A DNA stretch of 64,000 nucleotides from an uncultured delta proteobacterium (GCA_963701385.1 CAVOZW010000006.1:75720-139719), one strand, 5' to 3'. Counted from the first letter of the stretch, positions 8,705-59,775 are shown. Numbers and translations are program-made. Notes: generated by a model from the letters alone, not told the origin.

Positions 8705-10009
8705 TCAGTGGAGCAAACCCGGAAGAAACAAAACAAGTTTTGGGAACAGCATCAGAACAAAGATACACAGAATATAGGCAGGTAAAAAATAGGCCACCCC
8801 CTTGAAAACATCTTCCAGGGGTACATCTTTTGCCATACCGCCAACAACATAGGTGGTCGCGCCCACCGGTGGTGTGACAGCACCCAGGGTTGTCACCACC
8901 GTGATGGTGACGCCAAACCAGATGGGGTCATAACCGAGTTCCATGGCGACAGGAAAGAAAATAGGGATCGTAATCAAAAGCAGTGCCAGGGCATCCATCA
9001 CGGCACCCCCCACAATGTAAATGCCAAAGATGATGGCCATGATGACCATGTCCGGAACAGGCAATCCCACAACCCATGACGCGATGTCATACGGAATTCG
9101 GGTTGCCGCTAGGAATCGACCGAATACCATGGCACCGGCAACGATGACGATCACCATACAGGAGACCCGAATGGTATCGGTAACAGCTTTCATGAAACCC
9201 GATAAGGTGAGCTTTCGCTGAACAACACTGAGCAGTATGGCAAAGAGAGACCCCACAGCACCGGCTTCCGTGGGCGTAAAAAACCCAAAATACAGGCCCA
9301 TCATCACCAGCAAGAACAGAATGGCCATTTCAAAAGCACCCGAGAGACCCTTTATCTTCTCAACAAAGGTGGTTCGGGGGCCCATCGGGCCCCAGTCCGG
9401 ATGCATTGTGCAGACAACATAGACGGTCAAAATCAAGAAAATAGCCAGAATAATACCGGCCCCGATTCCACCATAAAAGAGGCGTGCGATGGACTGCTCG
9501 GTGGAAAGCCCGATAACGATCAGGACCACGCTGGGTGGGATCACCACACCCAGTGTCGAGCCACATGCAATTGCCCCCGTACTCAGTCTCGAATCGTAAC
9601 GATATTTTTTCATCTGCGGAAGCGCTACGGTGGTCATGGTGGCAGCCGTAGCTGCGTTTGAACCACAAATCGCCGAAAATGCCGAACAAGCCAGAATGGT
9701 CGCCATGGCAACGCCACCGCGAATCTGGCCCACCCACCGATAGGCCGCTTTGTATAATTTTTCGTTGACGCCCGAATAAAACGCGATCTGGCCCATGAAT
9801 ATAAACAAAGGGATGACGGTCAGACCATACTTGGAAAATGTCTCCCACAAAACAGAGCCCAACATGTTCAAGCCTGCTTTGAAAGAGATTAGGTAACAAA
9901 AACCGCAGAATCCCACGATGCCCATGGCAAACCCCACCGGCGTACCGAGTAAAAAGAGCATCAACAAAAGGACGACGATGCCGAGAATGCCTATAACAGC
10001 CGGGGTCAC
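8705..10009 (-). CDS. dctM: TRAP transporter large permease
   Basis: 434 aa, polytopic, typical DctM N-terminus. The GTG start overlaps the dctQ stop (GTGA). Confidence 0.9.
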   Translation of the reverse strand: MTPAVIGILGIVVLLLMLFLLGTPVGFAMGIVGFCGFCYLISFKAGLNMLGSVLWETFSKYGLTVIPLFIFMGQIAFYSGVNEKLYKAAYRWVGQIRGGVAMATILACSAFSAICGSNAATAATMTTVALPQMKKYRYDSRLSTGAIACGSTLGVVIPPSVVLIVIGLSTEQSIARLFYGGIGAGIILAIFLILTVYVVCTMHPDWGPMGPRTTFVEKIKGLSGAFEMAILFLLVMMGLYFGFFTPTEAGAVGSLFAILLSVVQRKLTLSGFMKAVTDTIRVSCMVIVIVAGAMVFGRFLAATRIPYDIASWVVGLPVPDMVIMAIIFGIYIVGGAVMDALALLLITIPIFFPVAMELGYDPIWFGVTITVVTTLGAVTPPVGATTYVVGGMAKDVPLEDVFKGVAYFLPAYILCIFVLMLFPKLVLFLPGLLH

Positions 10010-10497
10010 GATTTTGTCTCCTTAGCGGGTATGAGTTGTCTTAGTAAATCTGTAAGAAGAATCAATGCAAGTACCCCGCACCCGAGGGCCACGGCATAGG
10101 TGAAAGGGTAATAGATGATTCTAAGCGTTTCCGTGACTTCACCGGTGGTTCTGAGGGTGTTTGCCTTTATCGCCAATTGCCATCCGGCCAATATGAAAAA
10201 TATACAGCACATGCCGTTGTTGATTGCCGATAAGACCGAGCGCGTTTTTTGCGGAAAAACATTTACCAGCACATCAACGGCAATATGACCTTTGTTGATT
10301 TGGGTGTAGGCCAGGGCAAAGGCTGTCAACAGGGCGCCTGCAAATCCCATGAGTTCATACGTCCCGCTGACGGGCACCCAAAAGATGCGAAAAGCGATAT
10401 TGGCACATGTCAAAAGGACCATGAAAATGAGAATAAGGCCCGCCAGAAATGTCAGTGTTTTGTTAAGGTACGCTGTAATCTTCGTTAAATATATCAT
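10006..10497 (-). CDS. dctQ: TRAP transporter small permease
   Basis: 163 aa with four hydrophobic helices, lying between dctP and dctM. Confidence 0.85.
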   Translation of the reverse strand: MIYLTKITAYLNKTLTFLAGLILIFMVLLTCANIAFRIFWVPVSGTYELMGFAGALLTAFALAYTQINKGHIAVDVLVNVFPQKTRSVLSAINNGMCCIFFILAGWQLAIKANTLRTTGEVTETLRIIYYPFTYAVALGCGVLALILLTDLLRQLIPAKETKS

Positions 10498-10510
10498 GAC
10501 AAATCCGAAG

Positions 10511-10590
10511 CACGAAATTCGAAATACGAAACAATACTCAATGACACAAATTCGATATTTGGATTTGTTTCGTATTTCGATATTCGAATT
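10511..10590 (-). other. Intercistronic stem-loop between dctP and dctQ
   Basis: cgaaatacgaaacaa (10520..10534) is the perfect reverse complement of ttgtttcgtatttcg (10565..10579). Flanking bases extend the stem imperfectly, and the loop is 30 nt. A related single arm lies at 44097..44120. Confidence 0.6.
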
Positions 10591-10614
10591 TAGAGTTTTA
10601 TTTCGACCGCATGT

Positions 10615-11640
10615 TTACTTCCCAGCGTGTTTCGCGGTCAAGGCCTTGATGTCCTTTACAATGGCTTCACCCGGATATCCCTTGGCCGTAGCACTTTTGA
10701 TCCAGTCTTCGGTCATGAAGGTCAGCTTGGCATCCCATTTGGCTTTTTCAGCAGCCGACAAGCGGATGAATTCAACACCTTGTTCTGTTTCCGACCATGC
10801 ATTGGCCTCTTTCACGTGGTTGTCCATGTATGTGCCTGTCCAAAGGGCCTGCTCCACACGTAAGTTTTCCATAACCGTTTTGACATCTTCGGGCAATGCA
10901 TTCCATTTCTCAATATTCATGACCACGGCAAAAGGATAAATAACCGTTTCGGTTAAGGTGACATACTTGCAGATCTCTGCAAATTTGAAATCTTTCATAA
11001 CCTCGGTCGAGGTAAACAAGCCCTGTACGACGCCTTTTTGCAAGGCCTCGGGGGTTTCCGACATGGGCATGCCGACCTGGTTGGCACCCCAGGCTTTGAG
11101 GATCTGGGCGGCCCCACCGGAGGCTCTCAAATCCAGCCCTTTGATATCATCCAAATTTCTTACCGGTACCTTGGACATGATATTGGCCGGCGCCGTTGTA
11201 AACATGGTCAGAACCCGGACTTTGGCAAAGGACGTGGGCAGATATTTCTGATAGAGATCCCAGAGTACCAGGCTGCCGGTTTTCGCATCCGGCAATCCCA
11301 ACGGCAGACTGGTGGCGTTGGTGGTGACAAAACGGCCGGGCTGGTAAGCCATGCAGAGGCACCCGATGTCGGCAGTTCCGGCGATGACACCGTCCATCAT
11401 GTCCATGGCACCCAGGAGCGTTCCCCCTGGATAGGTGTCGATGGCAACCTTGCCTGCGGTTCTTTTCTCGACTTCCGTTTTCCAGCGTTCCATTTGAACA
11501 CAGGGAAACGTCGGGGCCGGCGGAAAATTGGCATAGCTGAGTTTAACGGGTCCGGCCACCGTCATGCAAGGCACCAGAAAAGTTCCCACAACGACGACGA
11601 CAAAGAAAATGGCACATAAAAGAACAAGTTTTTTCTTCAT
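10615..11640 (-). CDS. dctP: TRAP transporter solute-binding protein (DctP family)
   Basis: 341 aa, signal anchor then periplasmic domain. Strong RBS AAAAAGGAGGATCTATCATG. Confidence 0.85.
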   Translation of the reverse strand: MKKKLVLLCAIFFVVVVVGTFLVPCMTVAGPVKLSYANFPPAPTFPCVQMERWKTEVEKRTAGKVAIDTYPGGTLLGAMDMMDGVIAGTADIGCLCMAYQPGRFVTTNATSLPLGLPDAKTGSLVLWDLYQKYLPTSFAKVRVLTMFTTAPANIMSKVPVRNLDDIKGLDLRASGGAAQILKAWGANQVGMPMSETPEALQKGVVQGLFTSTEVMKDFKFAEICKYVTLTETVIYPFAVVMNIEKWNALPEDVKTVMENLRVEQALWTGTYMDNHVKEANAWSETEQGVEFIRLSAAEKAKWDAKLTFMTEDWIKSATAKGYPGEAIVKDIKALTAKHAGK

Positions 11641-11742
11641 GATAGATCCTCCTTTTTGGGTTCAGTTTTTATCGATACCTTTCTGTTGAACAACACCGTC
11701 GCGTTCGACCGTGAGGAATTCTGTCAAAATTCATACCTCTTG

Positions 11743-14153
11743 CTAGTGCGGTTCACCGCATTCATCGCCTTCTTTTGTCTTGATGGCATCGAGGATCTTT
11801 TCCGGGGTAATGGGCAGTTCCGTCATTCGCACACCAATGGCATCGTATATGGCATTGGCGATTGCCGGCGCTGTGGGAACGAGTCCTGGTTCGCCGATTC
11901 CTTTGGCGCCATACGGTCCATCCGCATCTCCCAGTTCCACGACGACCGCTTCCACAGGGATCGCTATCCTTGGCTGTCAGAATATTGTAATCACGAAAAC
12001 TTGGGTTCATTACCTTGCCTTTTAATAGTTTTATCTCTTCCGTCAAGGCGAACCCGGTTCCCGTGTAGACAGCGCCGTATATCTGTCCCTTGATCAAGGT
12101 CGGGATTGATGGCTTTTCCAACATCATGGGCGGCAACCATATTCAGAATTTTGACTTGGCCGGTTTTCTTGTCCACCTCCACTTCTACGCCGGTGGTCCC
12201 AAACGCATAGGTCATGGAATAATTGCCTTTGAATTCCCTGTCCAGCATTTGGGTCGGTGGGTCGTAAAAAACTTCCGCCATGATGGTTTGGCTTTCCCCG
12301 GTGCCCACATGAAGTCCCTGTTTTAATACCTGGCTTACATCCATACCGCAATAGGGATTATTTGGTTCCGCTTTCAAGAAAATCTTTCGTTCCTGAATGT
12401 CGAGATTGTCCGGGTCGCCAAACAGGCTGAAATCGATATCCGGCAAATCGAAATCAGGGTCCATGCGTTGCTTTCTTTTTAAATTCGATTGAATAATCTT
12501 GGGCATCTGGAGCGTTGCCATTTCAAGAATCTGGCGGCGTATTTTCTTGCAGGCTTTGATGGCCGCATTGCCGGCGATGAAGGTATGCCTGCTGGCATGG
12601 GTTCCGGCATCCCACAGTGCCAGGGCGGTATCGCCGATCGTAAACGATATGTCATCGGGCCGAAAACCGAGCGCTTCGGCGATAATCTGCGAAAGCACGG
12701 TACTGGATCCCTGCCCCTGGTCTGTGCCACCACTGATGACATCCACATGCCCCTCTTCATCGACCTTGATCCGCATGCCGTGCCCATCTGATTTATATAC
12801 CCGGGCACCACCGGCCACGTGTATCAGGGATGCCATGCCGACACCCCTGCCGTTTCTCTTGCCGTGTTTCTCGTCCCATGATATTTTTTTCTTCACCGCC
12901 TGGATACAGTCTTCCAGCCCACAGGTGGTTATTTTAAGTCTCATGGGTGTGATATCACCACTGCGGTTTTGGTTGATGCTTCTGAATTCAGCCGGATCGA
13001 TTCCGGCGGCCTCTGCCAGTCGATCCATGGATGTTTCCACCGCAAACGTCGCCTGGGGTGTGCCGTAACCGCGCATGGCCTGGCAATAGATATTGTTCGT
13101 ATACACACAGCTTGCTTTGAAAAAAACATTGGCTACGCGATAAAGGGATGAAATGGGGGTCATCATGACCGATGGTGTCGTTGCCCCCCAGGAGGTGTAA
13201 GCGCCGTTATCAAGAACAGCTTCCACATACCGGAAAGTGAGCTTCCCATTTTTGTCGCATCCCTGTTCGATATCGAAAACAGCCGGCTGTCTTGGGGGTA
13301 GCGCTTTGAATTCCTCTTCCCGGGTAAACAGTATTTTTACAGGCTTTCGTGTTTTCAGGGCAAGCTGTACGGAGATGAATTCATAGATATCGGTATCCAG
13401 CTTGGTACCGAAGCTGCCCCCCACCACCATATTGCGAACGCGTATTTTTTTTCCCTGCAAACCAATTTTTGAGAAGTAATCCGCTAAACGTTGCTTGGCC
13501 CCAAAAATGACGTTGGTCTGACTGTAGAGGGTCAAGTTGTTGTTGGCGTCGAAATCCGCCACACACCCGCTGGTGCCCATACAGCACTGGTTGACCCAGG
13601 TCGTCGAGACACGATCTTTTACGATGAATGCGGAATCCTTTCTGCCCTGATCCAGATCGCCGGCACTGAATTGCCATGGCAAGGGTAAAATATTGCTGCG
13701 AATCGGTTTCCCACGCGCATCGACCTCGTGAACCAGGGGTGCTTCCTTCTTCATGGCCTCGAACGGGTCGAAGACAGCCGGCAGTTCTTCATATTCAACT
13801 TCGATCAGGTCGAGTGCGTCCTGGGCGATCTCAGGCGTGACCGCGGCAACGGCAGCGACTTCATCCCGAAATTGGCGAACACGATCCCGCTTGAGAACCG
13901 TCTGGTCTTTCAAGAACCCCACCCGCACGTCCGGAATATCCTGGCCCGTGAGAACGGCGCGGACGCCGGGCAGTTTTTTTGCGTTTGTGGTGTCGACACT
14001 CTTTATCCGGGCATTCACATAGCTGCTGTAAAGTATTTTACCATACAGCATGCCGGGGAGCTTGAGGTCATCGACATACACCGCTCGACCGGTCACTTTG
14101 TCCGTTTCCAGGGTTCTTGGAATATTTTTACCCACATAGTGGAATGTTGTCAT
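11743..14153 (-). pseudogene. Molybdopterin-binding large subunit of a xanthine-dehydrogenase/CO-dehydrogenase-family hydroxylase, interrupted by two +1 frame shifts (possibly assembly errors)
   Basis: Three tracked ORFs in three successive frames (11991..14234, 11762..12136, 11743..11955). They read through as ...VAAHDVGKAINP|TLIKGQIYGAVYTGTGFALTEE...ILTAKDSD|[24 protein letters not shown]. Junctions lie at about 12101..12104 and 11957..11959, both at a CCC run in the sense strand. Likely start is ATG 14153 after AGGAGG. Confidence 0.8.
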
Positions 14154-14236
14154 CTTGCCTCCTGAATTTGTTTTGCCGAAACTGGACGCTTTAAAGTATT
14201 TGACAAAAAGCGCCCGCCTTATGCCAAACACCATTG

Positions 14237-14707
14237 TTAAATGATTTTAGTGGCCATCTCGATCGACTCGACGATTTGAACATAACCAGTACACCGACAG
14301 ATGTTGCCTGAAATCGCCGTACGGATATCCGCTTCCGTGGGTTGCGGCTTTTCTTCCAACAGGGCCTTTGCAGACATGATCATGCCCGAGGTGCAGAATC
14401 CGCATTGTACCCCATTGTTTTCGAGAAAGGCTTTCTGGACCGGGTGCAATGAGCCGTCCGATTTTGCAACACCCTCGATGGTCAATACGTTTTTTCCCTC
14501 GATCTCCGGAATGGGATACAGGCATGCATTGACGGCAGCCCCATCGATGATCACGGTGCATGCGCCGCATTCACCCACGCCGCAACCCTCTTTTGCGCCC
14601 GTAAGCTCGAATGTTTCGCGAAGCGTTTTCAAGAGGGTCCAGCCCATGGGAACAACGGCTGTCACCGGGTTACCATTCAAGTTGAATGAAACAGATAGGG
14701 TGTTCAT
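14237..14707 (-). CDS. [2Fe-2S]-binding small subunit of the Mo-hydroxylase
   Basis: From ATG 14707 (AAGGAG RBS): MNTLSVSFNLNGN..., CGVGECGACTV and CGFCTSGM...CRCTGY cluster motifs. Confidence 0.9.
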   Translation of the reverse strand: MNTLSVSFNLNGNPVTAVVPMGWTLLKTLRETFELTGAKEGCGVGECGACTVIIDGAAVNACLYPIPEIEGKNVLTIEGVAKSDGSLHPVQKAFLENNGVQCGFCTSGMIMSAKALLEEKPQPTEADIRTAISGNICRCTGYVQIVESIEMATKII

Positions 14708-14748
14708 CGATAACTCCTTTCTATCAACAGTGTCTAACGGCTTGTCGC

Positions 14749-15636
14749 CTACTGCGAATGGCTTTGTTTTCTTTTGGCATCGATGGCAGCTTCTTTTGCC
14801 ACCCTGGGGATCAGAACCCTGACCATGTCTTCCCGGTACCACCCTTCACACCTGAGGCTGTCCCTTGGTGAGCAGCATTCCGGTGAAGCGGCAATCAAGC
14901 TTGCTTCTTTCAGGATGTCGTCCGTTAACGGCTTGCCACGCAAAAAATTTTCGGCCGGGTGGATACGAATGGGCGTGGGCGAGGCAACTGTCAAGGCAAT
15001 CCGTACATCGTCTATGATCTCGTCACGCCCCAGGGATAAGCCAACCGCGACACCGACAATCGGAAGGTTCATGGCCTGCCTGCGGGCATGTTTGCAGTAA
15101 GCGCTTCCAAAGGAGCCCATTTGTCCGGGTATGATGATCTCGGTGAGTATTTCGTCCCACGCTTTCACGGTTTCAGAGGGACCGGTAAAAAAATCTTCGA
15201 TGGGAACTTGTCGTTCGCTTTTGCTGCTCTTGAGCACCAGTAACGCATCCATGATCATCAAGGGCGCCGCTGTGTCTGCTGAAGGGGCGGCATTGCAGAT
15301 GTTGCCGCCGATGGTGGCCACATTCCTTACTTGCACGGAGCCTACCTGGGATGCCCCCTGGTGCAAGGCCGTCAACTCATTGGTCATGAGTCCCGATGTT
15401 TCAATCATACGGTGGGTGGTCAAGGCACCGATTCGATAGTCATCGTCTTTGTGAATATAACGAAGCGCCTCGATACCCCGCAAAGAAATGATGACTTCGG
15501 GGGACCGGTTACTTAGCTTGATAACCACCATGACATCGGTTCCACCGGCAATCAATTGCGCTTTTTCGCCGTGTTGCGCCAGCAGGTTGAATGTTTCTAG
15601 CAGATCCTTTGGTTTAAAATAAGCATAATCGATCAT
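14749..15636 (-). CDS. FAD-binding medium subunit of the Mo-hydroxylase (CoxM/XdhB-like)
   Basis: MIDYAYFKPKDLLETFNLL...AQLIAGGTDVMV..., NVATIGGNICNAAPSAD. The tracked start 15639 is GTG; the ATG at 15636 has the better spacing to GAAGGA. Confidence 0.85.
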   Translation of the reverse strand: MIDYAYFKPKDLLETFNLLAQHGEKAQLIAGGTDVMVVIKLSNRSPEVIISLRGIEALRYIHKDDDYRIGALTTHRMIETSGLMTNELTALHQGASQVGSVQVRNVATIGGNICNAAPSADTAAPLMIMDALLVLKSSKSERQVPIEDFFTGPSETVKAWDEILTEIIIPGQMGSFGSAYCKHARRQAMNLPIVGVAVGLSLGRDEIIDDVRIALTVASPTPIRIHPAENFLRGKPLTDDILKEASLIAASPECCSPRDSLRCEGWYREDMVRVLIPRVAKEAAIDAKRKQSHSQ

Positions 15637-15652
15637 CACCTAATCCTTCTCG

Positions 15653-16939
15653 TTAACGGTTGTCAAAAACGCGTTTCGATTTCCTCTCCGATCTCGGCAG
15701 GGAGCAGGTATCGAGCAATTCTACATCACAACTAACCATGATACTGTTTTTTATTTTTCGGCAAATGGCAGTCTCGAGCTCCCTCGATTTTTTGGCATTG
15801 CCACCCGACCCACACTCGACACGCAGGGTCATGCTTTCCCTGCCATCCGATTCCCGTTCAAGAATGACCTGGTATTCACAGGATATGTCGGGTATGGAGG
15901 AAAGCACTTCGTCGATCTGGCCCGGATAAATGTTGACAGCCCGGAAAATGATCATATCGTCTGAACGCCCCAGGATACTGTCATGCAAGGGGAGCGGGTT
16001 GCCGCAAGAACAGGCTGACGGTATCATGCGTGTCAAATCTCGTGTGCGATATCGTATCAATGGGGATGCTTCCTTGCACAGGGTTGTGACCACCATTTCT
16101 CCGATCTCGCCCTCGGGGACCGGTTCCAGTGTTTCCGGATCGAGGATTTCCAGAAGGTAATAGTCAGCCCAGTAGTGAATACCTTCGTGCCGGGAACATT
16201 CTAGGCCCGTTCCTGGACCATAGAGCTCGGTCATGCCGATGATATCGAACATGTCTTCCAGGCCCAACAAGGTCTTGATACGCTGGCGCATGGAATAACT
16301 GCTCCTCTCGGACCCAAAAATCATTTTCTTCAAAGCAATTTTGTCTTTCAGGTTTCTTCTTTCGATTTCTTCCGCCATGAGCAGTCCCATGCTGGCGGTG
16401 CAACACATGACCGTTGTTTGCAGGTCCACCAGGAACTGGCACTGCATATCGATATTCCCAGGCCCGATGGGTACTGCCATGGCACCGAAACGTTCACAGC
16501 CGAGTTGAAAACCGACCCCCGCGGTCCAGACACCGTAGCCAACAGCGATCTGAACACGATCCTCCTTGGAAAGGCCGGCCATTTCGTAGCAGCGTGCAAA
16601 AAAATGACACCAGTCATCGACATCTTTCTGGGTGTATGCCAGCACCTTTCGCTTGCCGGTGGTGCCCGACGATGCATGAATGCGAACGACATCGGATTCA
16701 GGAACAGACAAGAGGGGAAACGGATACTCGTTTCGCAAATCCTCTGCGCTGGTGAAAGGCAGTCTGCGAATATCGTCCAGGGTGCGGATGTCTTGCGTGC
16801 TTACACCTGAATCATCCAGGCGTTGGCGATAAAATGAAGACCCCTTGTATGCATGTGATAGCGTCCATTGAAGACCCTTGAGCTGGTGTGCCTTCAGTTC
16901 ATCCAGTGATTGAAGGGCCGGCATAAACGTTGCATTCAT
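15653..16939 (-). CDS. paaK: Phenylacetate-CoA ligase family (PaaK-type aryl/acyl-CoA ligase)
   Basis: 428 aa. ...LPFTSAEDLRNEYPFPLLSVP...IHASSGTTGKRKV...GPGNIDMQCQFLVDLQ. GGAGGTGGAAAATG RBS. Confidence 0.85.
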   Translation of the reverse strand: MNATFMPALQSLDELKAHQLKGLQWTLSHAYKGSSFYRQRLDDSGVSTQDIRTLDDIRRLPFTSAEDLRNEYPFPLLSVPESDVVRIHASSGTTGKRKVLAYTQKDVDDWCHFFARCYEMAGLSKEDRVQIAVGYGVWTAGVGFQLGCERFGAMAVPIGPGNIDMQCQFLVDLQTTVMCCTASMGLLMAEEIERRNLKDKIALKKMIFGSERSSYSMRQRIKTLLGLEDMFDIIGMTELYGPGTGLECSRHEGIHYWADYYLLEILDPETLEPVPEGEIGEMVVTTLCKEASPLIRYRTRDLTRMIPSACSCGNPLPLHDSILGRSDDMIIFRAVNIYPGQIDEVLSSIPDISCEYQVILERESDGRESMTLRVECGSGGNAKKSRELETAICRKIKNSIMVSCDVELLDTCSLPRSERKSKRVFDNR

Positions 16940-17022
16940 TTTCCACCTCCTTAACCCAGATATGTCATAAACCTTGACGAAGGGCTGCGGCTACAGGCTG
17001 AAATGCCTTGCGCCAGGGCCGA

Positions 17023-18810: not shown

Positions 18811-18865
18811 CTGGATTTTCTTTCTTTTATATTTCGAGTGGTTATTTAAATAGTGTTAAGTTTTA

Positions 18866-20215
18866 GGTTTAAGGTTTGACGGTAGACGTCAAGTTTTTCG
18901 TGTCCAAGTCCCATGTTATTTCGATTTCGATAGCGATCCCGATTTCGATTTCGATTTCGATCATAGCGACAACCGCGCGCCTAAGTGAAGAATCTCGCAG
19001 CAAGCTGCGAGGAATGTTCAATATTTAACTGTGTTATAAGCAAGACGTCAATCGAGATACCCAGAGCTTCACGTCTCACGACTTACGTTTTATTGGGTTC
19101 GAAATCGCTATCGCTATCGGTATCGAAATCGATTTCCCCAGTTTCATAATGATCAGTGGAAAAGATAAAGGGGACGTTCCTTGATATATAAGTTTCTATC
19201 CATCCATTGAAGAACCTCGCAGCAAGCTGCAGAGTCCCTGGCCTTCTCGTAGACCCAACGCTACACAGCTTATCGAATGACAGTAGACGTCCAGTTTTTC
19301 GGGTCCAAGTTCCATATTTCTTCGATTTCGATCATAGCAACAACCGCGCTCCGAATTTAACTGTTTTATAAGCTGGACGTTAATCGAAATACCCAGAGCT
19401 TCGCGTCTCACGACTTACGTTTCATCGGGTTCGAAATCGTATCGCCATCGGTATCGGTATCGAAATCGATTTCCCCAGTTTCATAAGCAGCAGGCTCTTC
19501 CTTGACGCAGTAACCCCTTCCTCCCAATCGACTGAGCATGGCGGCCATGCGATCCAATTCAGCTTTATGATTTAAGCTTTCCTGCTCTTCCAGCACCTTG
19601 CCGACTACCAGAACATCCTGAACAGCAGCACATTCCAATGCTGAGCCACGTGCGATCTCAAAATAACGCCTTCTATCTGCTTTCGACGTCTTGCCATTAC
19701 CTTCCGCAATATTTAGCGGTATCGATTGACTGGCACGAAGCCACTGATCCCGTGCAGATCGATGAATTCCCGTCAGAACTCCTGCCTTCTCGTAGACCCA
19801 AGCAACATAGCCTATCGCAAGACGGTAGACGTCCAGTTTTTCGTGTCCAAGTCCCATGTCATCTCGATTTCGATAGCGATCCCGATTTCGATTTCGATCA
19901 TAGCAACAAACGGGCTCCATGGTGAAGCATCTCGCAGCAAGCTGTGAGGAATGTTCAATATTAAACTGTGTTATAAGCAAGACGTCAATCGAGCTACCCA
20001 GCGTCACGTCTCACGACTTACGTTTTATCGGGTTCGAAATCGCTATCGCTATCGGTATCGCAAGACGATAGACTCCAGTTTTTCGATCCAAGTCCCATGT
20101 CATCTCGATTTCGATAGCGATCCCGATTTCGATTTCGATCATAGCAACAACTGTGCTCCTAAGTGAAGAAGAATGCGCTCGCTGTTGCGGTTAGTTAAAA
20201 CCTAATACCCACCCA
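18866..20215 (-). repeat. Tandem array of four copies (one intact, three decayed) of a four-helix-bundle-protein cassette with a conserved leader and spacer
   Basis: Start-codon remnants gacgtc(c/a)agtttttcg(t/g)gtccaagt(c/t)ccat end at 18914, 19315, 19857 and 20098. 3' tails tcacgacttacgtt begin at 19076, 19408 and 20011. The same spacer precedes each copy (GAAATC hexamers, hairpin CTCGCAGCAAGCTGCGAG, ...aactgtgttataagcaagacgtcaatcgag). Confidence 0.85.
19408..19857 (-). CDS. Four-helix-bundle protein (TIGR02436 / 23S rRNA intervening-sequence protein family, Avd-like fold)
   Basis: 149 aa from ATG 19857: MGLGHEKLDVYRLAIGYVAWVYEKA...RDQWLRASQSIPLNIAEGNGKTSKADRRRYFEIARGSALECAA. The NIAEG and GS..E signature matches this family. 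The tracked 199-aa version only adds translation of the repeat leader. Confidence 0.8.
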   Translation of the reverse strand: MGLGHEKLDVYRLAIGYVAWVYEKAGVLTGIHRSARDQWLRASQSIPLNIAEGNGKTSKADRRRYFEIARGSALECAAVQDVLVVGKVLEEQESLNHKAELDRMAAMLSRLGGRGYCVKEEPAAYETGEIDFDTDTDGDTISNPMKRKS

Positions 20216-20231
20216 CCACCTCCTACCGCAA

Positions 20232-22316
20232 TTACATTTCAATCCAAACAAACCCGTAAGAATCCACTGTGCAGGCGGCATCTTCACCGATCACGATGGT
20301 CGATTCTCTTTCTTCTACAATTGCCGGTCCCTGGATGGCAGCACCCGGAAAGAGTTTCATTCGATCGTACACGTCGTGCGGCACAAACATCTTGCGCTGC
20401 AATGAAAATGCAGGCCGTGTTCCTTTCAAAGCATCTTCCAGTCGATCTGTCTGATGTTCAAATCTGGGCAGCTGAAACGGTCTTTGCGGTTCACTGACGC
20501 GGACCTTGAAGGTTACAAATTCGATCTGTGTTTCCGGATATGTCCTGCCATAGAGCTTCTCATAGACCTGGTCGAAAAGATGACGAATTTCCGAGACGCT
20601 CCAATCATAAAAGGGCTTGTTTTCCAAGAGGATATCGGTTTCGGCACCCTGGCCGATAAACCGCATCATAAGCGTTCTCTCAATAATCAAGGTATCGTCA
20701 TCGACAGCCTTTTGCAATATGTCGGCGCCTTCGGTCTCCAGGGTCTTAAAAAGGGTTTCGATTTCATTGAAATCGGCCTCGTCAAGCCTGATCCGGTGAC
20801 TTCGGGTCAGATCAAATGCCACCGGCGCCGTAAAAAAACCCAGGGCGGACCCAACACCGGCCAAGGGGGGTACCAGTATTCGAGGGGCATTGATTTTTTT
20901 TGCCAAACCAAAGGCATGAACCGGTCCGGCACCGCCAAACGCCGATATGGTTACGATGTTCGGGTTGCCGCCTTTTTCCGCGATGTGCGTTTTTGCCGCA
21001 GCCGCCATGGTTTCATTGATCAGGTCGTGGATACCAAATGCGGCCTCCACCAGTGTCGTGCCCAGCGGTTGAGCGATTTTTTCCTGAATCGCATTCTCGG
21101 CGGCCGATTTGTCCAGCACCATGCTGCCTCCCAGAAAATAATCCGGGTCCAGGTATCCCAATACCAGATCTGCGTCGGTAACGGTAGGGTGAATACCGCC
21201 TTTGCCATAGCAGACCGGTCCGGGATCTGCGCCAGCACTCTCCGGCCCCACCTGAAGCAGACCCATTTTGCTGATCTTTGCCATGCTTCCGCCGCCGGCA
21301 CCGATTTCCATGAGATCGACAACAGGCACCTGAATCGGTAGACCACTGCCCTTCTTGAATCGCTGAACCCTTCCGACCTCGAAAGTGGAGACCATGCCGG
21401 CCTGCCCTTTCTGTATCAGACACGATTTTGCCGTCGTACCTCCCATGTCGAAACAGAACATGTCCTTGATCTGGAACAGGCTGCCATAGTGCTGGGATGC
21501 AATCACGGCCGCCGTAGGGCCTGATTCGATAATGCGTACCGGGAATTTACGGGCGGTTTCGATGGAGGTAATTCCGCCGCTGGATAGCATAATAAACAGC
21601 TTTCCCTTGAATCCCAGGGCATCCAGTCTTGAGGACAGCTTTTCCAGGTATCTGGATGTTATGGGCTTGACATATGCGTTGGTAACCGTTGTGCAGGTCC
21701 TTTCGTATTCACGAATCTGCGGTAAAACCTCAAACGATGTGGATAGCGAGAGCTCCGGGGCGAGCCGCTCTATCGCCTCTTTGAGCACGTTTTCATGAAT
21801 CGGGTTTTCGTAGGAATTGAGAAGACACACCGCCAAAGATTCGATCTGCAGGTCCTGAAGTTCTCGCAATACGGCCGCGATGTCTTCTGCTTGGATTGGC
21901 AGCAAGACCCTGCCGTCGCTGGCCACCCGTTCGGCGACTTCCTTCCTGAGAAACCGGGGTACCAGGGGTTCAGGATACTCCGCAAAAATATCGTAAGCAT
22001 CGTAGCGCAGTTCTCTGCCTAGTTCCAGCACATCCCTGAAACCCTGGGTGGTGATGAGGCCCGTTCTGGCACCTTTTCTTTCGATGATGGCATTGATCAC
22101 CAGGGTTGTTCCGTGGATGAATTCATCGGTAAAGGCCATGAATCCGGGCGTGCTTATCTCGAGCTGGCCTACGCCTTCTGCAACGGCTGTGGACGGGTCT
22201 GAAGGGGTCGTCAGACACTTGTGCGTCTGGAATTCACCAGTATGATCATTCACCAGCACAAAATCGGTAAACGTGCCGCCAATATCACAGCCCAAACGAA
22301 AGGCATTTTTTTTCAC
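20232..22316 (-). CDS. hyuA: Hydantoinase A/oxoprolinase family protein (alpha subunit)
   Basis: ...KKNAFRLGCDIGGTFTDFVLV... is a typical HyuA N-terminus. The tracked start 22328 is TTG without an RBS. GTG 22316 sits 5 nt after GGAGA and is preferred. Confidence 0.9.
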   Translation of the reverse strand: MKKNAFRLGCDIGGTFTDFVLVNDHTGEFQTHKCLTTPSDPSTAVAEGVGQLEISTPGFMAFTDEFIHGTTLVINAIIERKGARTGLITTQGFRDVLELGRELRYDAYDIFAEYPEPLVPRFLRKEVAERVASDGRVLLPIQAEDIAAVLRELQDLQIESLAVCLLNSYENPIHENVLKEAIERLAPELSLSTSFEVLPQIREYERTCTTVTNAYVKPITSRYLEKLSSRLDALGFKGKLFIMLSSGGITSIETARKFPVRIIESGPTAAVIASQHYGSLFQIKDMFCFDMGGTTAKSCLIQKGQAGMVSTFEVGRVQRFKKGSGLPIQVPVVDLMEIGAGGGSMAKISKMGLLQVGPESAGADPGPVCYGKGGIHPTVTDADLVLGYLDPDYFLGGSMVLDKSAAENAIQEKIAQPLGTTLVEAAFGIHDLINETMAAAAKTHIAEKGGNPNIVTISAFGGAGPVHAFGLAKKINAPRILVPPLAGVGSALGFFTAPVAFDLTRSHRIRLDEADFNEIETLFKTLETEGADILQKAVDDDTLIIERTLMMRFIGQGAETDILLENKPFYDWSVSEIRHLFDQVYEKLYGRTYPETQIEFVTFKVRVSEPQRPFQLPRFEHQTDRLEDALKGTRPAFSLQRKMFVPHDVYDRMKLFPGAAIQGPAIVEERESTIVIGEDAACTVDSYGFVWIEM

Positions 22317-22353
22317 GACATTCTCCAATTATTTTTGATACCAACGTATCACC

Positions 22354-22456
22354 AACCCAACGAACCCAACAACCCAACAAACCCAACAAACCCAATGAAC
22401 CCAATGAACCCAACAAACCCAACAAACCCAATGAACCCAATGAACTCAACAAACCC
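22354..22456. repeat. 9-nt tandem repeat (AACAAACCC / AATGAACCC), 11 C3 tracts on the + strand (G3 on the mRNA-sense minus strand)
   Basis: Read directly: ...aacgaacccaacaacccaacaaacccaacaaacccaatgaacccaatgaacccaacaaacccaacaaacccaatgaacccaatgaactcaacaaaccc. It lies between the mutase stop (22477) and the hyuA start. A second array is at 61038..61106. Confidence 0.9.
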
Positions 22457-22476
22457 TATTCCCCACGTCCCCTTGT

Positions 22477-24111
22477 CTAGAAGATCCCCGGCTCCTCCCA
22501 CTCGCCGAAAACATCACGCAGGACGGCGGTCATTTCTCCGACCGTTGCATATTCCCGACAACATTCCACCAGCAATGGCATGACATTATCTCCCTTTCGG
22601 GTTCCCTTTTCGAGTTCTTTCAAGGTGCGCTTAACCGTCTGGCTGTTACGCGTGCGTTTGAGCGCCTCCAAATGCTTGATTTGTTTCTCAACCCAGGCTT
22701 CATTGTGTTCGTGAAGTTCTACATCCGGGCCGGACTCGCCAGCGTCGATATATTTATTCAACCCGACTTTGACATATTCCCCGCTTTGCAATCCCTTTTC
22801 ATATTCATATGCCTGCTGGGCCACTTTTCTCTGGATATATCCCGAAGACACTGCCGGAATCATCCCGCCCACTTGCTGGATGGCCGACATTTCTTCCTGA
22901 ATCTTCTCTTCCATCTGTTTGGTGAGCGTTTCAATAAAATAAGATCCTGCCAATGGGTCTACCGTGTCCCTAAGCCCGACTTCATCCATGATGATCTCGA
23001 GGGTTCTGAGTGAAAGCAAGGCCGCTCTGGGTGTGGGAATGGTATAAGCTTCGTCAAAAGAGCATAGTGCCGTAGTCTGGGCGCCGCTGAGGGCGGCCCC
23101 GAGTGCATAAAAGGCACTTCTCATAATGTTGTTTTCAGGCTGCTCCTTTGTAAGACCACTGCCACCGCCGCCGAAAAGGCCCCGCAAAAAAAGTTTCTTT
23201 TTGTCTTGAATACCATATTCGTCTCTTAACATGCGGGCCCACAGTTTTCTGGCTGCTCTGAATTTGGCTATCTGTTCCCAAAGGTTTCCAAAGACATTCA
23301 GGTTGAATGAAAAGCGCCCCACAAAGTCATCGGCATCGATACCCCGCTTCATTACATTGTCGATGTAGGATTTCGCAATTTCAAACGCGCAGGCAATTTC
23401 CTGTGAAGGCGTCGCACCCGACTCCCGAATATGGTAGCCGCAGATACTCACCGGGTTGCACCTGGGAAGGGCTTTCATGCTGTATTCAATACTGTCACCG
23501 ACCAGACGAACGGCATGATCAACAGGAAATATCCAGGCGCCGCGACCAATCATTTCCTTCAGGATATCGTTCTGGGGCGTGGCGCTGATTCGGTCTCTGG
23601 CGTAGCCGGATTTCTCCGCAAGTGCCTGATACATGGCAAGCATGATACAGGCGATGGCATTGATGGTGAGTCCGGTTCCAATCCGATCGAGAGGAATACC
23701 CTCAAATGCGATTTCAAAATCCCGCAGGGAGTCGACAGCCATGCCGACACGTCCGACTTCTCCGGCAGCAAGCGGGCTGTCTGAGTCCAGACCCATCTGT
23801 GTCGGAAGATCAAAGGCAACGTTCAGGCCTGTCTGCCCGTGTGAGATCATATATTTAAAACGTTCGTTGGTCTCTTCCGGGGTGCCGAAACCGGTATACT
23901 GACGTGTCGTCCAAGCCCGGCTGCGATAGCCCAGGGGATGCAGGCTCCGGGTAAACGGGTATTCTCCGGGATGCCCCAGATCTTTTTCATAATCAAACCC
24001 CACCGCCCCAAGATCGTCCGGCGTATACACCGGCTTGACCTTGATACCCGATTGATACGCGACCTCGGTTATGGCCCCTTTTTCATCTTTTGTGTACTTG
24101 GCAACGCCCAT
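22477..24111 (-). CDS. Coenzyme-B12-dependent acyl-CoA mutase, large (substrate-binding TIM barrel) subunit, methylmalonyl-CoA-mutase type
   Basis: 544 aa. ...WTTRQYTGFGTPEETNERFKY...GQTGLNVAFDLPTQMGLDSD...TPQNDILKEMIGRGAWIFP. The Tyr in RQY and the Arg in GRG correspond, from memory, to Tyr89/Arg207 of Propionibacterium MCM. These are Phe/Gln in isobutyryl-CoA mutases. Confidence 0.85.
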   Translation of the reverse strand: MGVAKYTKDEKGAITEVAYQSGIKVKPVYTPDDLGAVGFDYEKDLGHPGEYPFTRSLHPLGYRSRAWTTRQYTGFGTPEETNERFKYMISHGQTGLNVAFDLPTQMGLDSDSPLAAGEVGRVGMAVDSLRDFEIAFEGIPLDRIGTGLTINAIACIMLAMYQALAEKSGYARDRISATPQNDILKEMIGRGAWIFPVDHAVRLVGDSIEYSMKALPRCNPVSICGYHIRESGATPSQEIACAFEIAKSYIDNVMKRGIDADDFVGRFSFNLNVFGNLWEQIAKFRAARKLWARMLRDEYGIQDKKKLFLRGLFGGGGSGLTKEQPENNIMRSAFYALGAALSGAQTTALCSFDEAYTIPTPRAALLSLRTLEIIMDEVGLRDTVDPLAGSYFIETLTKQMEEKIQEEMSAIQQVGGMIPAVSSGYIQRKVAQQAYEYEKGLQSGEYVKVGLNKYIDAGESGPDVELHEHNEAWVEKQIKHLEALKRTRNSQTVKRTLKELEKGTRKGDNVMPLLVECCREYATVGEMTAVLRDVFGEWEEPGIF

Positions 24112-24124
24112 ATAGCCACCTTTT

Positions 24125-24526
24125 TTAAAGCGATAAGCTGATCTTCTCTATTCCTTCAATCATGTCATCAAATGACGTTCCGCCCGGATAGACACCCTTG
24201 ATACCCATTTGTTTCAGCTTTGGAATGTCTAGCGCAGGTATCACGCCGCCCACCACGACCCCAGTGGATTCGATTCCTTCTTTTTTCATCGTTTCGAGTA
24301 GTTTTTCGCAGATGGAGAGATGGGCGCCGGACATGATACTCAGGCCAATGATGTCGACGGCTTCTTGAAGGGCTGTTCTGACAATCTGGTCAACCTGTTG
24401 ATGAAGCCCGGTATAAAGCACCTCCATGCCGGCATCTCGCAGCGCCAGCGCAACGATCTTTGCGCCCCTGTCATGACCGTCCAATCCAGGCTTGGCAATG
24501 AGTATTTTTATTTTTTTTCCACGCAT
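24125..24526 (-). CDS. Acyl-CoA mutase small subunit, cobalamin-binding domain
   Basis: 133 aa. ILIAKPGLDGHDRGAKIVALALRDAGMEV contains the DxHxxG base-off B12 motif. Confidence 0.9.
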   Translation of the reverse strand: MRGKKIKILIAKPGLDGHDRGAKIVALALRDAGMEVLYTGLHQQVDQIVRTALQEAVDIIGLSIMSGAHLSICEKLLETMKKEGIESTGVVVGGVIPALDIPKLKQMGIKGVYPGGTSFDDMIEGIEKISLSL

Positions 24527-24649
24527 AGGGTGCCCCTTCTTTTACTTGACCGGTTGTTTAGACGGGAGACTGTTAGACATTCAGCCCTATTATTTCATGA
24601 AGTATGAAGAGATAAAACCTTGTTAGCAGTCTACCGTCGAACAGCCTAA

Positions 24650-24821
24650 CTAGTACCCATCCACAAATGGTCTTTTTGCGCTCTGCCGGCGTTGGAAGGC
24701 ATGATTTAACTCCTCAAAATAGCATACTATTCACCCCAAGGGCACTTCCTGCGGGCGCCTGCGGGTTAAATCTGCCTTCCGCCTTGGCAAAACACAAAAA
24801 TCCTTATTTCTGGACGGTCAC
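24650..24821 (+). repeat. MITE-like 170-bp element with ~55-bp imperfect terminal inverted repeats (copy A)
   Basis: Nearly identical to 56537..56706. The left arm gtacccatccacaaatggtctttttgcgctctgccggcgttggaaggcatgatttaac pairs with the right arm gttaaatctgccttccgccttggcaaaacacaaaaatccttatttctggacggtcac. The centre holds a direct repeat cctgcggg-cg-cctgcggg. Confidence 0.8.
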
Positions 24822-24824
24822 TAA

Positions 24825-25532
24825 CTACCTCAGCTTTTCATATAATTCCAACACTGCCTTTTGTCCACGGGTCAAATGCTCTCTGACGATGCGTTCAACA
24901 CCGTCTGCATCCCGCTGTCTGATTCGTTCAAGCATGTCCTTATGATCGTCATTGCTCCTTCTGGCATGCATCTCGTCCCTAAGAATTATCTGTCGAAAAC
25001 GATAGATTTGATCGCGCAGGTTATTGATCATGTGGATCAATTTCGGGCTTCTGCTCAGCGCATACAGCAGATCATGAAACTCCGTATTGATGTGCGGAAG
25101 TGGGTCGAGGTTTTTGCAATCCAGGTGTTTCTGAAATAGCTTGATTTTTTTTTCCAGGGGTATGAGGTCCGCCTTGCGATGTTTTTCGGCTGCCAGCCTG
25201 GCTGCATAACTTTCAAGAACGCTTCGAATACCGAATGTTTCCTCCACGTCATCCCGACTGAGTCCAAGAACGCTGAAACCGCCCCGGGGAAGTTTGCGCA
25301 AATAGCCTTCTCTTTCCAGCTTGTGAATAGCCTCTCTCACCGGTGTCCTGCTGATGCCGAGTGTTTCTGCCAGACGACTTTCGATGAGCCTTCCACCCGG
25401 CGGCATATCCCCTTTAATGATGGCGCTTTTTAAATTCTCGAACACATGCTGGCCGAGTGATTTTCGTTGACCGATTTTCCCGAGTTCCTTCAACCCCCTG
25501 TCGTGAGTATTTTTTTGAGAATCCATTGTCAT
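24825..25532 (-). CDS. GntR-family transcriptional regulator, FadR/FCD subfamily
   Basis: From ATG 25532 (or 25526): winged HTH ...GGRLIESRLAETLGISRTPVREAIHKLEREGYL, then a helical FCD-type C-terminal domain. The longer tracked N-terminus would run up to the upstream stop. Confidence 0.85.
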   Translation of the reverse strand: MTMDSQKNTHDRGLKELGKIGQRKSLGQHVFENLKSAIIKGDMPPGGRLIESRLAETLGISRTPVREAIHKLEREGYLRKLPRGGFSVLGLSRDDVEETFGIRSVLESYAARLAAEKHRKADLIPLEKKIKLFQKHLDCKNLDPLPHINTEFHDLLYALSRSPKLIHMINNLRDQIYRFRQIILRDEMHARRSNDDHKDMLERIRQRDADGVERIVREHLTRGQKAVLELYEKLR

Positions 25533-25628
25533 TCTCTTCTGATTTCCGTTTTCCCTGATGCGGGGAGTTGCAGGATGTGCTGTGCTTTTTTTTCTCCTTC
25601 TCCCAGCGGGTTGGATCCTGGCCAAACC

Positions 25629-26819
25629 TTAGATGATCCCTCTGCCTTGCATGTCTGCAAGGGTTTCTGCATCAGTCCCCAGTTTTTGAGAATAAATTTC
25701 ATTGTTGTGTTCACCAAAGCGGGGCGGAAATGTCAGCTCACCGGAGGTGCCTGCCAAAAAAGGTGTCATGATGGGAGGCGGGGCCAGCGTAATCCGTCGT
25801 GAGGTTATGGGGTCTTTGGCAAAGAGCAACTGTTTTTTCACCAGAGGGTCTTCAATGACATCCTCGAGGGACTTGATCTTGCTGACCGGAACCGTTATGG
25901 ACTGCAGTAGTTCGATGAGATCCTCGGATGTCATTTGTTGGGTGACGGCATTCATGGCCTTGTTCACATTTTCAACATCCCGTATTCGACCGGCATTTTT
26001 TTCATATTCGGGTTTGTCGAGCAGGTTAAAAACAGATTGCGACACCAGCGCCTTCCATTGGCGGTCGTTTCCAACAGCCAGGTAAACAAAACCGTTTTGG
26101 GTTTGATACACCGAAACAGGGCAAAAAAATTCATGGGTGTTTCCTCTTCGGCTAATCTTTTTTCCAAAACTGGACGTCAGGGTGATCGGAACCGTCAACC
26201 ATGACACAGACGATTCAAACATCGATAAATCAATGCGACTCCCCTCTCCTGTAACGTGTTTTTTGAGCAAAGCCTTCATCAAAAGCCCGTATGCGTGTTC
26301 GCTCGTCCCCATGTCCGGCAGTGGAATACCCAGCACCTGCGGATCGCCATCCGGCTGCCCCGTAAGATCCATCAATCCGGATCTTGCCTGCAAAATGGGA
26401 TCATAGGCGCCCTCGTTGCTGTGGGGCCCGAATCCGGTGACACCCAGCCAGATGATATCTTTCTTGACCCTTTTCAGCCTTTCGAAATCGATACCCAGTT
26501 TTTGATAATTCTTGGGCAACTGGTTGGTGATAAAAATATCGACGTTCAATTTCTGAATCAACTGATCAAATAATTCCTGGCCTTCCGGCTCCGCAAGATT
26601 GAGCGTCAAAGCCTTCTTGCCTGCATTGATACAAAGGTAATAGGCATTCATCTGTTTCTCACCCAGCACATTCTCTCCGATCATCCTGTTGGGGTCTCCG
26701 TAAACAGGATGCTCCAGACGAATGATTTGCATCCCGTCCTGAGCCAGTCGATAGGTGAGATACGGCACCACGGTTGCCTGTTCCAAGGATAACACCGTAA
26801 TGGTTTTCAGAAAGTCCAT
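25629..26819 (-). CDS. Family III CoA-transferase (CaiB/BaiF type)
   Basis: MDFLKTITVLSLEQATVVPYLTYRLAQDGMQIIRLEHP...GDPNR...; ...AYDPILQARSGLMDLTG...DMGTSEHA. The tracked start 26840 is TTG. ATG 26819 follows GGGAGAG. Confidence 0.85.
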   Translation of the reverse strand: MDFLKTITVLSLEQATVVPYLTYRLAQDGMQIIRLEHPVYGDPNRMIGENVLGEKQMNAYYLCINAGKKALTLNLAEPEGQELFDQLIQKLNVDIFITNQLPKNYQKLGIDFERLKRVKKDIIWLGVTGFGPHSNEGAYDPILQARSGLMDLTGQPDGDPQVLGIPLPDMGTSEHAYGLLMKALLKKHVTGEGSRIDLSMFESSVSWLTVPITLTSSFGKKISRRGNTHEFFCPVSVYQTQNGFVYLAVGNDRQWKALVSQSVFNLLDKPEYEKNAGRIRDVENVNKAMNAVTQQMTSEDLIELLQSITVPVSKIKSLEDVIEDPLVKKQLLFAKDPITSRRITLAPPPIMTPFLAGTSGELTFPPRFGEHNNEIYSQKLGTDAETLADMQGRGII

Positions 26820-26985: not shown

Positions 26986-27000
26986 TGTATACTGTATACA
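26986..27000. promoter_or_regulatory. 15-bp palindrome TGTATACTGTATACA, candidate GntR/FadR-type operator over the -10 of the minus-strand promoter of the CoA-transferase operon
   Basis: On the minus strand: TTGACA (27015..27010), 18 nt, TATACA (26991..26986). The palindrome covers the spacer and the -10. Confidence 0.6.
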
Positions 27001-27082: not shown

Positions 27083-27095
27083 GTATACAGTATAC
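27083..27095. promoter_or_regulatory. GTATACAGTATAC operator copy over the + strand promoter facing the biotin-carrier/carboxyltransferase operon
   Basis: TTGACT (27067..27072), 18 nt, TATACG (27091..27096). Same architecture as at 26986 and 34994. Confidence 0.6.
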
Positions 27096-34993: not shown

Positions 34994-35008
34994 TGTATAC
35001 AGTATACA
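34994..35008. promoter_or_regulatory. Third copy of the palindromic operator TGTATACAGTATACA, over the promoter of the 35074 operon
   Basis: TTGACT (34981..34986), 16 nt, TATACA (35003..35008), 66 nt upstream of ATG 35074. Confidence 0.6.
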
Positions 35009-37095: not shown

Positions 37096-37209
37096 ATTTG
37101 CTGCACGAATTTTTTTGAAGGGTTCGTGGATTTGAAACATAGGGAATAACAGGTCATCGGAAACCTAACACATATACCCTTGGACCCTTTCTCCCAATCA
37201 GGAGGTATA

Positions 37210-59741: not shown

Positions 59742-59775
59742 CCATCACATTGAATACAAACCCGAGGATAAAGAC

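Follow-up and report, generated by a model that had tools for sequence, protein, structure and literature searches.

A stretch of 64,000 nucleotides from an uncultured delta proteobacterium (GCA_963701385.1, G000:C6:75720-139719; hereafter the window) contains a block of co-directional genes between positions 8705 and 26819. Judged by sequence comparison, this block (the island) is with a probability of about 0.8 the core of a regulon of the iaa type, by which an uncultured Desulfobacterales-like sediment bacterium would degrade indoleacetate, or tryptophan-derived indoleacetyl-CoA, anaerobically. The clade to which the window belongs is a variant of this known pathway family, distinguished by the lack of IaaF and by a regulator and entry modules of its own. 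The source genome comprises 4.69 Mb in 27 contigs. Its closest relatives are metagenome-assembled genomes (MAGs) of uncultured Desulfobacterales or labelled ‘delta proteobacterium’, and the window sequence is also present in sediment metagenome runs; among the runs listed as containing it there is none of RNA.

All genes from 26819 down to 8705 are on the minus strand according to the list of open reading frames (ORFs) and the Pfam matches (Table 1). A first-pass annotation of the window had described the block in this way, although its title omitted the GntR regulator. Its count of 15 genes was not reproduced exactly, as we find 13 genes for the pathway or its regulation and one inserted ORF. 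As it also stated, intergenic gaps are short apart from repeat insertions. There are three of these, and the largest gap is that between hyuB and hyuA (18811-20231), which measures 1421 nt compared with 116-308 nt in four relatives. It holds an array of four-helix-bundle cassettes, which is outside the pathway. Joints that skip 19019-20171 within the array were seen in metagenome contigs, with flanks of only about 22 letters, too short for interpretation. A scan for promoters and terminators gave counts at chance level and is therefore uninformative on internal transcription units.

Table 1. Features of the window, with positions counted from its first nucleotide.
Feature	Position	Strand	Basis
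DctM	8705-10009	-	Pfam DctM
DctQ	10006-10497	-	Pfam DctQ
DctP	10615-11640	-	Pfam DctP
Molybdopterin (large) subunit, IaaK-like	11743-14234	-	Pfam Ald_Xan_dh_C, MoCoBD_1, MoCoBD_2
2Fe-2S subunit, IaaJ-like	14237-14842	-	Pfam Fer2 and Fer2_2
FAD subunit, IaaI-like	14749-15639	-	Pfam FAD_binding_5 and CO_deh_flav_C
PaaK-type aryl-acetate-CoA ligase, presumed IaaB role	15653-16939	-	Pfam AMP-binding and AMP-binding_C_2
HyuB-type lactamase subunit, IaaE-like	17023-18810	-	Pfam Hydantoinase_B
Inserted array of four-helix-bundle (23S rRNA IVS protein family) cassettes	18866-20215	-	Pfam 23S_rRNA_IVP on ORF 19408-20007
HyuA-type lactamase subunit, IaaC-like	20232-22328	-	Pfam Hydantoinase_A plus N- and C-terminal domains
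B12 mutase large subunit, IaaH-like	22477-24111	-	Pfam MM_CoA_mutase
B12-binding small mutase subunit, IaaG-like	24125-24526	-	Pfam B12-binding
GntR/FCD (FadR-type) regulator	24825-25625	-	Pfam GntR and FCD
Family III CoA-transferase, IaaL-like, 396 aa	25629-26819	-	Pfam CoA_transf_3
Operator palindrome GTATACTGTATAC, island promoter region	26987-26999		Pattern search
Second operator copy, divergent promoter region	27083-27095		Pattern search
Biotin carboxyl carrier protein, 70 aa, EAMKME biotinyl-lysine motif	27428-27640	+	Sequence reading, translation
Carboxyltransferase, methylmalonyl-CoA type	27693-29255	+	Pfam Carboxyl_trans; NCBIfam mmdA subfamily, 736 bits
Ordinary acyl-CoA dehydrogenase, YEG motif	29352-30503	+	Motif, alignment, tree
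SerA	31650-33230	-	Between two plus-strand operons, with TrpB2
TrpB2-type O-phosphoserine-dependent tryptophan synthase homologue	33510-34883	-	NCBIfam, 710 bits, cut-off 366
Third operator copy, between TrpB2 gene and Had/Ech-IorAB operon	34995-35007		Pattern search
Fused 3-hydroxyacyl-CoA dehydrogenase/enoyl-CoA hydratase (Had/Ech)	35074-37095	+	Pfam 3HCDH_N and ECH_1
IorA	37180-39066	+	NCBIfam IOR_alpha, 671.8 bits, above cut-off of 650.9 (equivalog)
IorB	39250-39846	+	NCBIfam IOR_beta, below cut-off
Oah (6-oxocyclohex-1-ene-1-carbonyl-CoA hydratase) and Had (6-hydroxycyclohex-1-ene-1-carbonyl-CoA dehydrogenase)	54204-55337, 55410-56513	-	NCBIfam, both above cut-offs

Enzymes of the island and the iaa locus

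To our knowledge, breakage of the indole ring without oxygen has been studied biochemically only in Aromatoleum. In a 2012 study by Ebenau-Jehle, a Mo enzyme is said to hydroxylate the pyrrole ring. The iaa locus, iaaABCDEFGHIJKLMPQR in A. evansii KB740 and A. aromaticum EbN1 (PMC9613470), serves anaerobic indoleacetate degradation (PMC9613470, PMC8360864, PMC8453981, PMC5214803) and leads to 2-aminobenzoyl-CoA. Its products include a binding protein (IaaM), indoleacetate-CoA ligase (IaaB), phenylsuccinyl-CoA transferase (IaaL) and a mutase (IaaGH) (PMC8360864). IaaCE is described as a hydantoinase-like ATP-dependent lactam hydrolase and predicted to be a 2-oxoindoleacetyl-CoA gamma-lactamase (PMC8453981, PMC5214803). 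IaaF is a decarboxylating benzylmalonyl-CoA dehydrogenase in which GGG replaces YEG, and its physiological electron acceptor is still unknown (PMC8360864). Operons of the iaa type have been predicted in Desulfatiglans anilini, other sulfate reducers and Ferroglobus placidus (PMC8360864).

The family III CoA-transferase of the island led to this locus. A search of 1.84 billion representatives returned first its own tight group, then a high-GC group at 37-38% identity, and a member of the latter, used as query, matched the ‘Phenylsuccinyl-CoA transferase’ of strain EbN1 (CAI07268/Q5P5Z3), that is, IaaL. In direct comparison, the window protein and EbN1 IaaL are 37% identical over the full length (E 2e-96). 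It is the sole match of IaaL in this genome, and IaaL is nearer to it than any solved CoA-transferase structure. We predict that the enzyme moves CoA within, or onto, (2-aminophenyl)succinate.

A metagenome scan with IaaL yielded a locus (L115) with an IaaL 98% identical to that of EbN1. Its gene order is iaaC(part)-E-F-G-H-I-J-K-L, three of its ORFs fall into 90% clusters with EbN1 IaaF (CAI07262), IaaJ (CAI07266) and IaaK (CAI07267), and its IaaE has the published length of 564 aa. The large mutase subunit of the island is 54% identical to its L115 counterpart, a reciprocal best match ahead of two paralogues (46% and 42%), and is predicted to convert (2-aminophenyl)succinyl-CoA to (2-aminobenzyl)malonyl-CoA. 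The small, B12-binding subunit (48%) is likewise the best match in the genome. HyuA shares 33% identity with the part of IaaC that L115 contains and HyuB 28.5% with IaaE, each being the sole such gene in the genome. The molybdopterin subunit, the best genome match of IaaK, is 40% identical to EbN1 IaaK (Q5P5Z4) over 700 aa (E 4e-169) and also 40% identical to L115; the 2Fe-2S and FAD subunits reach 45% and 33% with L115. Thus, for IaaC, E, G, H, K and L the island gene is the best or sole match of each in the genome, and these six are reciprocal best matches at identities of 28.5-54%.

A second three-subunit cluster of the xanthine dehydrogenase family is located at G000:C6:155369-159270, about 16 kb past the window end. 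It ties with the island subunits for Aromatoleum IaaI and IaaJ and matches IaaK at 37%.

The island and the Aromatoleum cluster have in common the same enzyme families and a binding-protein-dependent uptake system in one co-directional block, although the gene order differs. The tripartite ATP-independent periplasmic (TRAP) transporter DctP-DctQ-DctM, also found within iaa-type clusters of 13 relatives, is predicted to take up indoleacetate. By its nearest solved structures the ligase belongs with PaaK-type ligases; it scores 406 bits with the NCBIfam PaaK model, below the cut-off of 646, and a name look-up (Atlas) returned generic PaaK names only. No NCBIfam equivalog model was passed by any island enzyme. 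The first-pass annotation stated that it knew no characterised pathway with such a set of genes, and it regarded the substrate as unreadable from the sequence. Neither statement is supported, as by sequence comparison the set is that of the Aromatoleum iaa locus, which serves indoleacetate.

Conservation of the gene set in other anaerobes, which had been suggested there as a check, was indeed found. A genome scan identified 577 stretches encoding relatives of the transferase, and our locus comparisons cover the best 80. All of these are Desulfobacterota MAGs, with identities of 69-88% for transferase, mutase, HyuAB and ligase. Their recurrent gene order is transferase-GntR-mutase-HyuAB-ligase-Mo enzyme or a variant of it that includes DctPQM. 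In about 27 of the 80 loci, an acyl-CoA dehydrogenase with a GGG motif (ending ...LL(Y/S/N)GGGTHE...) is encoded 2-3 kb from the transferase gene. These dehydrogenases are 43-48% identical to Aromatoleum IaaF and form one clade with it in a quick tree, with a Shimodaira-Hasegawa-like approximate likelihood ratio test (SH-aLRT) value of 99, apart from all acyl-CoA dehydrogenases of the window genome. The presence of a true IaaF in the sister clusters identifies the cluster family as the iaa family.

The distribution was analysed in 401 genomes of one phylum, drawn around genome G001 and used as a Desulfobacterota-like sample. A transferase orthologue is present in 80 (about 20%) and an IaaF-like gene in 79; 70 genomes have both, often side by side. 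G001 itself (locus L080) is a MAG labelled Hyphomicrobiales with a transferase 70% identical to that of the window. Match rates, identities and locus GC in the sample from its phylum are typical of Desulfobacterota, which suggests that its label or binning is wrong. A search with P0130 returned relatives in Planctomycetota, Thermoplasmata and Chloroflexi, and the plasmid search only paralogues at about 31%.

The biotin-dependent module and the IaaF step

The search for an IaaF orthologue was negative in this genome, where the best matches reach 33-38% identity, and in five further genomes of the same layout (six of six without). The sister Desulfobacterota clusters, in contrast, have the IaaF orthologue beside the transferase, and the iaa operons predicted in the strict anaerobes D. 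anilini, NaphS2, Desulfocarbo indianensis and F. placidus have IaaF together with a dedicated electron transfer flavoprotein (PMC8360864). Instead, the window has genes for a biotin carrier, a carboxyltransferase and an acyl-CoA dehydrogenase that are co-regulated with the island. The dehydrogenase is 33% identical to EbN1 IaaF; it keeps YEG where IaaF has GGG in the alignment, and is therefore not IaaF. In the tree it falls into a separate clade, and the solved structures closest to it are those of butyryl- and medium-chain acyl-CoA dehydrogenases and of the caffeyl-CoA reductase CarC.

The carboxyltransferase matches the MmdA/12S/PccB family and, as in that family, is paired with a small biotin carrier with an AMKM motif, which is kept beside it in loci L009-L013. 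Its nearest solved structures are PccB, MmdA and 12S (604-546 bits), with no glutaconyl-CoA decarboxylase among those listed. It differs from these enzymes in scoring below the NCBIfam mmdA cut-off, in its neighbourhood, and in its proposed arylmethyl-malonyl-CoA substrate. No membrane beta subunit, 5S subunit or biotin carboxylase gene was seen adjacent to it, a 5S-type subunit not having been searched for specifically. The module is present instead of IaaF in 13 of the best 80 loci, and in eight a third type of YEG dehydrogenase is encoded directly beside the transferase. Orthologues of the carboxyltransferase (74-77% identity) occur in four of the 401 sampled genomes, and all four also carry the transferase, compared with 80 of 401 overall.

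As the simplest reading, we infer that carboxyltransferase, biotin carrier and ordinary dehydrogenase together replace IaaF. The carboxyltransferase is proposed to act on (2-aminobenzyl)malonyl-CoA by decarboxylation or transcarboxylation, and the dehydrogenase would then oxidize 3-(2-aminophenyl)propionyl-CoA to 2-aminocinnamoyl-CoA. We also considered a glutaconyl-CoA decarboxylase acting with a non-decarboxylating glutaryl-CoA dehydrogenase, as in the benzoyl-CoA pathway. This was rejected, because the dehydrogenase is nearer to the butyryl- and medium-chain types than to 3MPI and the carboxyltransferase matches PccB, MmdA and 12S.

An alternative to a replacement of IaaF is that the module serves another step, such as a carboxyl-saving transcarboxylation, the conversion of the other malonyl-CoA enantiomer or that of an unrelated acyl-CoA, while an unrecognized enzyme does the work of IaaF. 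We give this somewhat less than an even chance. It would account for three genomes (G173, G316 and G364) in which the carboxyltransferase orthologue adjoins a divergent dehydrogenase of the GGG type. This arrangement speaks against a simple replacement, as an IaaF-like enzyme is not always excluded by the carboxyltransferase, the role of which may thus be a different one. The same holds for the lack of an adjacent beta subunit or biotin carboxylase, the sole gene for a membrane decarboxylase beta subunit (OAD_beta) being on another contig. Against a separate role stand the consistent lack of an IaaF orthologue in the genomes of this layout and the operator and divergent promoter region that the module has in common with the island. 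Moreover, its carboxyltransferase family acts on 2-substituted malonyl-CoA, and the dehydrogenase is distinct from both glutaryl-CoA dehydrogenase and IaaF.

The three loci with the divergent arrangement are L198 (3975-6886; G364), L199 (4155-7066; G316) and L201 (3043-6273; G173). Their carboxyltransferases are 74-76% identical to that of the window, and their dehydrogenases, with a VGGGTSD motif, are 40-41% identical to a Desulfobacterota IaaF.

Operator, regulator and the link to indole

The first-pass annotation had placed an operator-bearing promoter upstream of the island, and this is confirmed by the pattern search. The 4.69-Mb genome has exactly three copies of the palindrome GTATAC-W-GTATAC, all of them in this window and each at a promoter region; a control pattern had no occurrence and none was expected from shuffled sequences. 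Two copies lie between the island and the carboxyltransferase operon. The third is upstream of the gene for the Had/Ech fusion protein, which is followed by those for IorA and IorB. The restriction of the palindrome to these sites ties the island to the carboxyltransferase operon and to the β-oxidation/IorAB operon.

Many relatives have an exact copy of the operator immediately upstream of the transferase gene, in loci of the IaaF type and of the carboxyltransferase type alike. All three sites keep their arrangement in L009, L012 and L013, the third copy being in the same intergenic position, and the layout of the whole regulon is conserved in L009, L010, L012 and L013. The island also encodes a regulator with a winged-helix GntR domain and an FCD effector domain. 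Its gene is in the same position in most relatives, and gene and operator are common to the window and the sister Desulfobacterota clusters. No GntR homologue was found in the Aromatoleum-type loci, from which the window thus differs by a GntR/FCD regulator with a palindromic operator of its own. The protein is probably a repressor of all three transcription units, acting via this operator.

The window further differs from the Aromatoleum cluster in the attachment of genes for IorAB and for TrpB2 and SerA. The regulon is tied to indole chemistry, and to a second entry from tryptophan, by IorA, which passes its equivalog cut-off, and by the Had/Ech fusion, a homologue of which (up to 60% identity) is encoded in 26 of 80 Aromatoleum-type iaa loci. 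We propose that IorAB provides this entry, forming indoleacetyl-CoA from tryptophan via indolepyruvate. In L013, L047 and L069, as in four Aromatoleum-type loci, iaa genes have IorAB genes in their vicinity. A second IorA-like gene near the window end (61906-63411, plus strand) scores 604 bits with IOR_alpha, just below the cut-off.

The TrpB2-SerA gene pair lies beside the third operator, a position that is kept in L009, L010, L012 and L013. L016 and L047 likewise have a TrpB2 homologue close to their iaa genes, in L016 next to a partial match to SerA. Enzymes of the TrpB2 type are described as binding indole tightly and using O-phosphoserine in PMC11917138, which cites Busch 2014 and Hettwer and Sterner 2002. 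With these properties, indole might enter the pathway through tryptophan. In the most far-reaching version, the regulon would be one of tryptophan- and indole-fed catabolism: TrpB2 and SerA would capture free indole in the form of tryptophan, from which indoleacetyl-CoA would be made by a transaminase and IorAB and then degraded by the iaa enzymes, and IaaF would be replaced by an ordinary dehydrogenase and a biotin-dependent decarboxylation that possibly conserves energy. We regard the indole entry, and the complete scheme with it, as speculative and rather unlikely. If true, it would amount to an anaerobic route of indole mineralization through tryptophan.

Genes for Oah and Had of the benzoyl-CoA pathway are also present in the window, so that the expected product could be degraded further. 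Near them, a thiolase-domain protein (57965-59140) and an enoyl-CoA hydratase (59722-60543) are encoded.

Proposed route and integrity of the island

Each enzymatic step of the route proposed here is derived from homology and gene context. Indoleacetate would be imported by the TRAP system and converted by the PaaK-type ligase to indoleacetyl-CoA, the same thioester that IorAB would make from indolepyruvate. The three-subunit Mo-hydroxylase would hydroxylate C2 of the pyrrole ring to give 2-oxoindoleacetyl-CoA, and HyuAB would open the lactam at the expense of ATP to (2-aminophenyl)succinyl-CoA. After transfer of CoA to the other carboxyl group by the IaaL-like transferase, the B12 mutase would produce (2-aminobenzyl)malonyl-CoA. 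IaaF acts next in Aromatoleum; here, carboxyltransferase and biotin carrier would remove the carboxyl group and the ordinary acyl-CoA dehydrogenase would form 2-aminocinnamoyl-CoA. The fused hydratase/dehydrogenase and a thiolase would then yield 2-aminobenzoyl-CoA, which would enter the benzoyl-CoA pathway. The sequence of uptake, CoA activation, Mo-dependent hydroxylation, lactam opening, B12-dependent rearrangement and CoA transfer given in the first-pass annotation was essentially right, except that the published scheme puts the IaaL transferase before the mutase.

Several observations speak against an assignment to indoleacetate. The transferase belongs to a sister subfamily of IaaL and lies outside its 50% cluster. 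HyuA and HyuB are likewise in sister subfamilies; they are about as similar to caprolactamase (CapA for HyuA) and N-methylhydantoinase as to the Aromatoleum proteins. IaaI and IaaJ match the second Mo-enzyme cluster outside the window about equally well, the substrate assigned to the ligase is a presumed one, and a thiolase gene is absent from the operator-marked units.

With this distance of transferase and HyuAB from IaaL and IaaCE, a ligase below the PaaK cut-off and a type of regulator unlike that of Aromatoleum, the substrate of the cluster might instead be some other aromatic or N-heterocyclic acetate (such as oxindole-3-acetate or a further aryl-acetate), degraded by the same types of reaction. 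We consider this improbable. The full set of enzymes and the implied order of reactions agree with a pathway that opens the pyrrole ring in an indole-3-acetyl thioester, and the operator is common to the island and the operon that contains IorA. A true IaaF accompanies the sister clusters, and iaa operons have already been reported in sulfate reducers (PMC8360864).

The last approximately 120 codons of the Mo subunit, including the conserved C-terminal GIGEP region, are spread over three frames. Alignment with three intact relatives, which have open frames of 809-857 aa, locates two single extra bases in the window assembly, near 12102-12105 and 11961-11962. The frameshifts had thus been noted correctly in the first pass, and decay of the island had been considered there as their consequence. 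At either site, however, the extra base is absent from every covering Logan contig (four sediment metagenome runs, X1-X4, from two studies). One contig of 1132 nt (about 99.6% identity) differs by four substitutions and exactly the two one-base gaps. Most probably, then, the two frameshifts arose as errors in the assembly consensus, or they are at most private to this assembly. Elsewhere in the window, the overlapping ORFs 46061-47629 and 47580-49160 (both on the minus strand) appear to be a single gene interrupted by an indel of one base, as the former contains an APH kinase and the first half of Peptidase_M23 and the latter the second half and a class III aminotransferase. This may be another such error, and a second split gene fits occasional indel errors of the assembly. 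It is thus very improbable that the island is a decaying, non-functional remnant, as the frameshifts and the 1.4-kb repeat array between hyuA and hyuB could be taken to indicate, because the metagenome contigs are without the extra base at each covered site, the second split gene suggests errors of the consensus and all other island genes are intact.

Two further genes on the minus strand lie downstream of the island. One (7345-8568), 136 nt from dctM, encodes a protein of the cysteine desulfurase family that scores above the cut-off of TIGR01977 and also resembles the selenocysteine lyase SclA. The order Mo subunit-DctPQM-cysteine desulfurase family gene recurs in genome G406, and the protein may take part in maturation of the Mo cofactor by insertion of sulfur or selenium. 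The other (4426-5961), a gene for a methyltransferase of the MttB family, is interrupted by an in-frame stop.

Sediments, guts and rhizospheres commonly contain indoleacetate and other products of tryptophan, and the core of the iaa route is widespread in Desulfobacterota. Homologues of the window CoA-transferase are currently annotated as formyl-CoA transferase, CaiB-like CoA-transferase or generic CoA transferase, and such annotations hide the pathway. If the biotin-dependent module does the work of IaaF, it would provide a testable answer to the question of how strict anaerobes handle the IaaF step, for which benzylmalonyl-CoA is available as a proxy substrate (PMC8360864).

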